A DNA stretch of 64,000 bases from an uncultured Clostridium sp. (GTDB lineage: Bacteria; Bacillota; Clostridia; TANB77; CAG-465): positions 733 through 64,732 of the forward strand of contig CANAIR010000007.1 in assembly GCA_947361355.1 (NCBI GenBank), written 5' to 3'. Position 1 is the stretch's first letter; each line of letters opens with the position of its first letter. The notes beneath the pieces were generated by a model that was given only the letters and a program-made list of their open reading frames with translations, had not been told where the DNA came from and made no database searches. Made by a program: the position numbers and the translations under genes. Of this stretch, positions 61,860 through 61,971 are shown piece after piece.

Positions 61860-61971
61860 CATGCTGTGGGGCACACAGTCTAAGCGAGTGGTAGCTTGAA
61901 TATAAGTATGCTCGAAGTCTAGAGATAGATATGTCACAAAAGCAACCCATAGGGCGTAGAAAAATTCTATG
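61860..61971 (+). ncRNA. Conserved structured RNA or leader (copy C), 70 nt upstream of tnpB
   Basis: Almost identical to 231-319. The last hairpin has a different sequence but still pairs (TAGAA 61957-61961 with TTCTA 61965-61969). Confidence 0.6.

Follow-up and report, generated by a model that had tools for sequence, protein, structure and literature searches.

TnpB is the ancestor of Cas12 and is thought to cut the empty donor site for its transposon with a guide that is copied from the flanking DNA, with cleavage sites located 15-21 nt from the TAM. For the ISGst2 enzyme TnpB2 the sequence TTTAT was verified as TAM (10.1101/2023.03.14.532601). For the TnpB and Cas12f enzymes tested it was shown that cleavage is lost below ~12-14 nt of complementarity, and wild-type ISDge10 TnpB equipped with a 10-nt guide engaged DNA without breaks, its cleavage declining with guides of less than 14 nt (PMC13507860). 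The guides of TldR are 9-11 nt long (PMC10705468).

The locus described here belongs to known RNA and protein families and appears to be new in its arrangement, i.e., an omega RNA encoded upstream of tnpB with a fixed 11-nt guide that matches the ends of its own element. In literature searches by topic and with the arm sequences, no account of such an arrangement was found. A scan of genome contigs with the pattern of the 5' hairpin returned one chance match in an Anaerolineales MAG, and the element was absent from the set of species representatives; a metagenome scan recovered two orthologous copies only, and scans of viral DNA gave nothing or chance matches only. Among plasmids and phages the nearest TnpB was at most 40% identical and no DNA match to the module was found. 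The TnpB clade itself comprises more than 100 protein clusters at 47% identity or above, and SRR30018220 and ERZ13410417 are among the samples in which the system is present.

The window, i.e., the whole stretch of 64,000 nucleotides that was analysed, derives from a low-GC spore former (SpoIIIAA) whose relatives are Clostridia MAGs. It carries three copies of the module, A, B and C (Table 1), and the loci fetched for comparison are designated by L numbers. The elements are bounded by perfect inverted repeats of 19-20 bp, referred to as arms. In copy C the left repeats at 61655 and 61719 are followed by promoter, RNA, tnpB and right repeat, and a hairpin at 61664-61698 begins in the outer left arm and ends with ...TTTTTTAC. 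Copy B is an element of 766 bp from arm to arm (28973-29738) that encodes the RNA but no tnpB, and its omega RNA shows compensatory stem changes compared to copy A. The left module of copy A (56 to ~400) is 18 kb away from a right module (~18170-18477). The interpretation of copy A as an 18-kb transposon was rejected, because genes of the host, among them those for SecA, a two-component system and an ABC transporter, lie in between and the pair is therefore not one mobile unit. Promoters equivalent to that of the copy C omega RNA are also present in L012, L019, L027, L110, L116, and L117. In assemblies with an identical TnpB the contigs break inside the RNA gene, which shows that those genomes carry repeated copies of the module.

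Table 1. Positions of arms, omega-RNA genes and tnpB in the window; arm sequences under Remarks are given in outward direction.
Copy	Feature	Position	Strand	Remarks
A, B, C	Repeat ends reading ACAAAACCAACCC	18464, 29725	+	Search with 1 mismatch
A, B, C	Repeat ends reading ACAAAACCAACCC	56, 28973, 61655, 61719	-	Search with 1 mismatch
A	Left arm	56..73	-	
A	Omega-RNA promoter	187-215		Equivalent to copy C
A	Omega RNA, no tnpB	222..345	+	Scaffold ~222-308, guide position 309-319, tail and hairpin 320-345
A	Right arm	18458..18477	+	TTTTTTAC, AAAACCAACCC, T
B	Left arm	28973..28991	-	
B	Omega-RNA promoter	29091-29119		Equivalent to copy C
B	Omega RNA, no tnpB	29126..29244	+	Scaffold ~29126-29207, guide position 29208-29218, tail and hairpin 29219-29244
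B	Right arm	29718..29738	+	TTTTTTTAC, AAAACCAACCC, T
C	Outer left arm GGGTTGGTTTTGTAAAAAA	61655..61673	-	TTTTTTAC, AAAACCAACCC, T
C	Second left arm	61719..61738	-	TTTTTTTAC, AAAACCAACCC; directly 5' of RNA module
C	Omega-RNA promoter, strong, sigma-70-type	61815..61843	+	TTGACT, 17-nt spacer, TACAAT, extended TG
C	Omega-RNA scaffold	61850..61937	+	5' end approximate
C	Guide-position segment AAAAGCAACCC	61938..61948	+	Arms matched at 10/11
C	Post-guide tail	61949..61975	+	AUAGGG, terminator-like hairpin GUAGAA-AAA-UUCUAU, U-rich run
C	tnpB, 386 aa	62042..63202	+	Pfam HTH_OrfB_IS605, OrfB_IS605, Cas12f1-like_TNB
C	Right arm	63240..63258	+	ATTTTAC, AAAACTAACCC, T

Several further features accompany the copies. 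A conserved right module (window 18170-18477 and 29480-29738; L012 2470-2615) is composed of three parts: a short ORF (MKILHTHTHT..., containing a (CA)n run at 18222-18248; MNKLHTGVMYIRK... in copy B), a strong hairpin with a T-run (18328-18372, 29610-29654), and an RBS and ATG of another short ORF, which extends outward across the right arm (..FYKTNP..). The right module of L012, which has no arm, is located just 5' of the omega-RNA promoter. The motifs TTTTAATCAA and TTTTATTCAAAA recur in the stretch that separates the omega-RNA hairpin from the start of tnpB (61976-62025; 340-415; L019 2935-2985) and could be a protein-binding array or the remnant of an ancestral left end. Immediately 3' of the copy A omega RNA a frameshifted PD-(D/E)XK gene is found (PDDEXK_2, Rpn-type recombination-promoting nuclease; 560-1524). 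Elsewhere in the window, a leader of ~150 nt is duplicated (49562-49709 and 60378-60523, through 60569). The leader is equipped with a separate promoter (TTGCAA-17-TATAAT, 60383-60411) and, at 60541-60569, with a terminator-like hairpin, and the copy at 60378 lies 5' of an amidase/LysM gene (60612-61655). As it had no match in Rfam, a riboswitch or attenuator not yet described is conceivable. A tandem duplication of ~410 bp (6918-7071/7328-7479) precedes the gene of an AMP-binding enzyme, and two paralogous ORFs of ~160 aa each are arranged in tandem at 38575-39055 and 39063-39561.

The analysis started from the 13-mer ACAAAAGCAACCC, for which a sequence-only reading had reported that it is identical in all three RNA copies, single-stranded, and in agreement with the right terminal repeat at 12 of 13 positions. 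It occurs on the + strand only, with three exact sites in the window (307-319, 29206-29218, and 61936-61948), each inside a promoter-driven RNA module of which ~100 nt are conserved among copies A, B and C. If one mismatch is allowed, six further sites are obtained, all of which are repeat ends, and the resulting nine matches compare to 0.05 expected from shuffled sequences; the right end of copy C, ACAAAACTAACCC at 63245-63257, differs at two positions. Identity of the copies, exact at 307, 29206 and 61936, and the 12/13 match were thus reproduced. The single-stranded state was borne out in part: AUAUGUCACAAAAGCAA is unpaired in the consensus fold, but the final CCC is paired in a mini-hairpin of 3 bp, as the guide CCC is predicted to pair with the GGG of the downstream AUAGGG. 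It had also been stated that the similarity of copy C to copies A and B drops right after CAACCC. This drop is real but not sharp: between copies A and C, 75/77 positions are identical in the scaffold and 11/11 in AAAAGCAACCC, followed by 9/12 over (G/A)TAGGG..TAGA and 9/20 in the subsequent 20 nt. The block of copy C conserved with A and B ends with the 11-mer plus a few bases.

Its homologies identify this small repeated RNA as the omega (guide) RNA that belongs to the TnpB of copy C. It adjoins tnpB in copy C and in 11 other loci, representing at least 10 lineages. It is encoded directly 5' of tnpB in the window, L012, L019, L020, L026, L027, L110, L116, and L117, the TnpB relatives being 48-74% identical, and 3' of tnpB in a sister group comprising L028, L109, and L113; in L028 and L113 this downstream RNA is positioned inward of the right arm by ~200 bp. 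Viral contigs contain more distant relatives (30-39% identity) with the canonical layout, in which the omega RNA is found immediately past the stop codon, and a profile built from the RNA matched directly 3' of tnpB in one canonical relative of viral origin. A 5' hairpin is common to the canonical omega RNAs and the window RNA (CCGUGGGGCACACGG and CUGUGGGGCACACAG, respectively), and they share the 3' scaffold end AUGUCAC; scaffolds of the canonical relatives end with GAUGUCAC, GUAGUUCAC or AGGUUCAA, including GUUCAC or GUUCAA forms. Near-identical canonical pairs located in different contexts, for example L030/L031, L086/L091 and two tandem copies in L032, diverge directly past this scaffold end, which therefore marks the boundary between scaffold and guide. 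The canonical viral relative L032 contains at 2620-2900 a second, partial tandem copy of the tnpB 3' end and the omega RNA, and the guides of its two copies differ.

In the window clade the RNA gene was moved from its usual place at the tnpB 3' end to a separate upstream unit, in which its own promoter, the scaffold, 11 nt, a terminator-like hairpin and tnpB follow each other. Rfam covariance models gave no match at the gathering score in the whole window and, at up to E = 10 over 61600-63400, noise only. A riboswitch or leader, suggested by the position of the module 5' of tnpB and by its terminator-like hairpin, was dropped on account of the homology to canonical omega RNAs and of the pseudoknot covariation.

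The consensus fold of the window lineage consists of the 5' hairpin (CUGUG-GGGCA-CACAG, 61864-61878), P2/P3 (61885-61914), a GNRA hairpin (UCUA-GAGA-UAGA, 61917-61930), the unpaired AUAUGUCACAAAAGCAA and the terminator-like hairpin, and it shows compensatory changes at four stem pairs. An alternative closing stem, CUGUGGG/CCCAUAG, was not kept, and L019 favours the local 5' hairpin. Positions 2-5 of the 5'-hairpin loop form a pseudoknot with the four bases that precede the final AC of the scaffold and the guide; in copy C the UGUC of the 3' end pairs with the loop sequence GGCA. The partners covary (GAAC/GUUC, GACA/UGUC, GGCA/UGCC, GAAU/AUUC, and GGUA/UGCC). With a crude automatic end-finder, all four pairs were found to be formed in 28 of 61 unique RNAs, whereas shuffles averaged 13.9 and did not exceed 22, none of 2000 reaching 28.

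The scaffold end ...AUGUCAC is reached at 308, 29207, and 61937. As this is the canonical scaffold end, AAAAGCAACCC (61938-61948) occupies the guide position, and the 13-mer is composed of the last two scaffold bases (AC) and 11 guide-position bases. The suggestion that the RNA resembles an omega RNA was thus right about the RNA family and wrong about the register. Past the 11 nt, copies A and B and L024 continue with GUAGGGAAUAG... and copy C with AUAGGGCGUAG..., and the 20 nt following CAACCC are near-identical in A, B, and L024. The corresponding tails are AGUAGGG in L019, AGUAUGG in L012 and AAAGGG in L020, and L027, L110, L116, and L117 carry equivalent tails, in each case with hairpin and U-rich run; altogether the same tail and hairpin follow the 11-mer in 12 of 12 loci. 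Since a conserved hairpin instead of hypervariable sequence is found at this place, the predicted guide is fixed and not copied from flanking DNA.

The arm inventory covers the fetched loci and comprises 40 arms. Read outward, an arm has the form TTTTA(C/T), 11-mer, T; the run TTTTA(C/T) is present in 40/40 arms, the 11-mer varies between genomes, and conservation is limited to the run, the 11 nt and the T. This invariant T-rich run looks like a TAM, and at the corresponding place the RNA genes have [UC]C[AG]C (GUCAC in the window). The outer flanks show no common motif beyond T(A), starting with TA in ~70% and with T in ~80% of the arms, and no empty site was recovered among the fetched loci. 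Extra arms or arm-loop-arm units were found in L012, L019, L020, L110, L114, L116, and L117, many of them away from tnpB, including a unit of ~190 bp in L110 (543-739) and arm-loop-arm palindromes of ~50 bp in L116 (206-254) and L117 (1208-1257). The arms constitute a REPIN/MITE-like repeat family that is homogeneous in each genome. They sit exactly where genes end: the left arm is adjoined or overlapped by the stop codon of the preceding gene (window 61653-61655 and 28967-28969; L019 2674-2676), and in L110 a gene terminates at a TAG (1755-1757) within the arm GGGCTAGC. Short palindromic units also contain abutted arm-TA-arm junctions (..CCC TA GGG..; L117 1205-1260, L116 206-254, L114 1400-1640) that resemble the CCC-(R)UA-GGG past the guide in the RNA. 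If the guide is extended over such a junction, the agreement is confined to CCC-(N)UA-GGG and does not continue beyond it.

Across genomes, the putative 11-mer guide tracks the arms. Guide and own-locus arm are identical at 11/11 positions in L027 (AAAACTAGCCC), L110 and L116 (AAAGCTAGCCC), and L117 (AAAGTTAGCCC). The guide of L012, AAAACCAACCC, agrees at 11/11 with an extra arm of its own at 6774 and with the window arms, and at 10/11 with its own right end AAAACTAACCC. Exact identity of guide and arm is therefore given in four of the five distinct guide sequences of the upstream type. The window lineage is the fifth: AAAAGCAACCC matches the arms, AAAAC(C/T)AACCC, at 10/11, the mismatch being a TAM-proximal G at guide position 5 where the arms have C or T (copies A, B, C, L019, L020, and L024). 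This G is kept across TnpBs that are 67-100% identical. In the downstream type (L028, L113) even the most favourable register gives only 8-9/11 matches between guide position and arm, and the mismatches fall in the seed. In a permutation of guides and arms over five distinct lineages the observed score was reached in 2 of 120 arrangements, the best attainable with few independent lineages. Positions 4, 5, and 8 each require that guide and both arms acquired the same substitution. All guides have A or G at position 12, where ~80% of the arms have T, and complementarity therefore stops at 11.

The TnpB of copy C aligns over its full length with ISDra2 TnpB (8BF8/8EXA, E = 2e-40), and the RuvC residues D204, E288, and D367 show no variation among 16 members of the clade. 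The left-end boundaries of the canonical relatives are fuzzy and some seem to be of TTGA-type, so that no TAM can be transferred from them to the window TnpB. As best explanation we propose that a TnpB with a frozen 11-nt guide recognises the ends of its own element, probably binding without cutting, a reading to which we give about an even chance. By means of the putative TAM TTTTA(C/T) and an R-loop of 11 bp, the TnpB-omega-RNA complex would recognise all arms of the genome, among them those at the two ends of its own element. As pairing is limited to 11 bp, stable binding without cleavage would be expected, although the enzyme appears nuclease-competent. Candidate purposes are to control whatever machinery mobilises the arms, to insulate the element from transcription, or to mark the ends. 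The succession of promoter, RNA, terminator-like hairpin and tnpB would furthermore imply that tnpB expression depends on read-through. A further-reaching version, which we consider quite unlikely, is that the arms are defined by the RNA as TAM plus 11-bp match to the fixed guide, TnpB-RNA being the end-recognition component, and possibly the nuclease, of arm propagation.

A different origin of the match is possible, though unlikely: an ancestral canonical IS may have inserted between TAM and target in one arm of a palindrome, so that the guide is the frozen remainder of this arm, with no present targeting role and an RNA that is perhaps inert or otherwise employed. The geometry is exactly that of a canonical IS200/IS605 insertion. 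The left palindrome of L113 runs up to ...TTTTTTTAC and then breaks, that of L116 breaks past ...GATTTT and the outer unit of copy C (61655-61698) past TTTTTTACAA, and in these three cases arm sequence resumes directly past the scaffold end; the imperfect matches in the downstream type and in the window lineage are what decay predicts. A relic should however lag behind the arms, yet the guide tracks them perfectly in L027, L110/L116, and L117, whose arms differ at one to two positions, and at up to four compared to the window arms. The tails that follow the 11-mer are homologous or equivalent from lineage to lineage, so that independent fresh insertions can be discounted, the conservation between A/B and C reaches exactly through the 11 nt, and the guides never have the T at position 12 that follows ~80% of the arms.

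Cleavage by the complex at or just outside both arms, by which TnpB and RNA would excise or mobilise arm-bounded DNA, seems decidedly unlikely. The RuvC triad is intact, no transposase was found in any fetched locus or in the 20 window ORFs scanned, nor any TnpA in the fetched loci, the arms have no conserved content beyond TAM-like run, guide match and T, and they are homogeneous per genome and equal to the genome's guide. Against this, only 11 bp are pairable, which is under the cleavage threshold of the tested TnpB and Cas12f enzymes (PMC13507860), the window lineage has a seed mismatch, strand-transfer activity is not known for TnpB, and cuts would be expected 4-10 bp outside the arm, leaving imprecise ends.

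The earlier proposal of a nested inverted-repeat unit of 250 bp is highly improbable; the internal copy would then be a third functional end for a protein transposase, and the DNA from the left arm to CAACCC (230-295 bp) would be mobile. Left arm and internal 13-mer do form inverted repeats, and short arm-loop-arm units exist elsewhere (those of L110, L116, and L117 mentioned above), but no locus was found in which such a unit ends at CAACCC beside unrelated DNA, the same tail and hairpin being present in 12/12, and the internal copy lacks the TTTTA(C/T) of all 40 arms. The segment moreover lies at the boundary of scaffold and guide in both gene orders, which an end acting at the DNA level would not explain. 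It is hardly conceivable that the 13-mer is an end-derived scaffold segment with a variable guide past CAACCC, as had alternatively been suggested: omega-RNA scaffolds do derive from transposon right ends and the RNA is an omega RNA, but the 16-20 nt downstream, expected to be hypervariable, are conserved among the copies as (A)GUAGGG and terminator-like hairpin (near-identical in A, B, and L024, the pattern being kept in C, L012, L019, and L020), the canonical scaffold end lies 11 nt earlier, and the full 13-mer has no window match besides the arms and the three RNA genes. Such conservation downstream is what the sequence-only reading itself had named as refuting evidence.

If the complex binds the ends, this would represent a natural 'dead-guide' use of an active TnpB and would place the clade midway from transposon-bound TnpB to derivatives with a fixed guide, e.g., TldR or Cas12k. 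If the arms are indeed defined by the RNA, transposon ends would possibly be specified by an RNA and not by the DNA-binding domain of a transposase. The scaffold is compact and comes with a promoter and terminator of its own, and the candidate TAM TTTAY is testable. A further question prompted by the system concerns the mobility of TnpB-only elements and of the repeat families that go with them.

Compared with known systems, the bridge or seek RNAs of IS110/IS1111 are similar in that one segment of a structured RNA encoded by the element can pair with the ends of that element. Their partner is a DEDD recombinase, and donor and target are each paired by an internal loop of their own, whereas here the only associated protein is TnpB and the RNA has a single 3' guide segment without a target-specifying loop. 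The arms resemble REPIN/RAYT systems and MITEs by their many homogeneous intergenic copies at gene ends, their inverted hairpin doublets and the geneless units among them. In contrast to REPIN/RAYT, no RAYT or other transposase was found and the arms are not GTAG-type REPs, and unlike in REPINs and MITEs part of the arm family carries a TnpB cassette with an arm-matching RNA.

With ISDra2 and ISGst2 (IS200/IS605, IS1341-type) the window element shares a homologous protein with intact RuvC triad, a homologous omega-RNA scaffold (5' hairpin, pseudoknot, ...AUGUCAC end), and the TnpB logic of a TAM followed by the guide match, the RNA gene itself being devoid of the TAM. The canonical omega RNA overlaps the tnpB 3' end and the right end, whereas the window RNA is encoded upstream with its own promoter and terminator. 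The canonical guide is the DNA flanking the right end, differs per copy and matches the empty donor site, while the window guide and the ~20 nt after it are conserved and the guide matches the ends of its own element. IS200/IS605 elements have no terminal inverted repeats, in contrast to the 19-20-bp repeats of the window elements, in which no TnpA was seen.

As far as the account in PMC10705468 goes, autorepression by the long-form tracrRNA of Cas9 provides a precedent for a cleavage-competent nuclease that is made a DNA binder by complementarity of ~10-11 nt, and wild-type TnpB with engineered 10-nt guides likewise becomes a binder by limited complementarity (PMC13507860). In the accounts given of these short-guide Cas9 and engineered TnpB cases a different protein family is named, and the target is a promoter and not transposon ends. 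The closest likeness is to TldR, which uses one fixed short guide of 9-11 nt against a conserved TAM-flanked site and binds without cutting (PMC10705468), the guide match being read here from sequence. TldR has lost the RuvC catalytic residues, whereas the triad of the window TnpB is intact. TldR is furthermore immobile and tied to host operons (fliC, oppF), with the RNA encoded downstream (PMC10705468), while the window cassette resides inside a repeat-bounded element and its putative targets are the repeat ends of this element itself.
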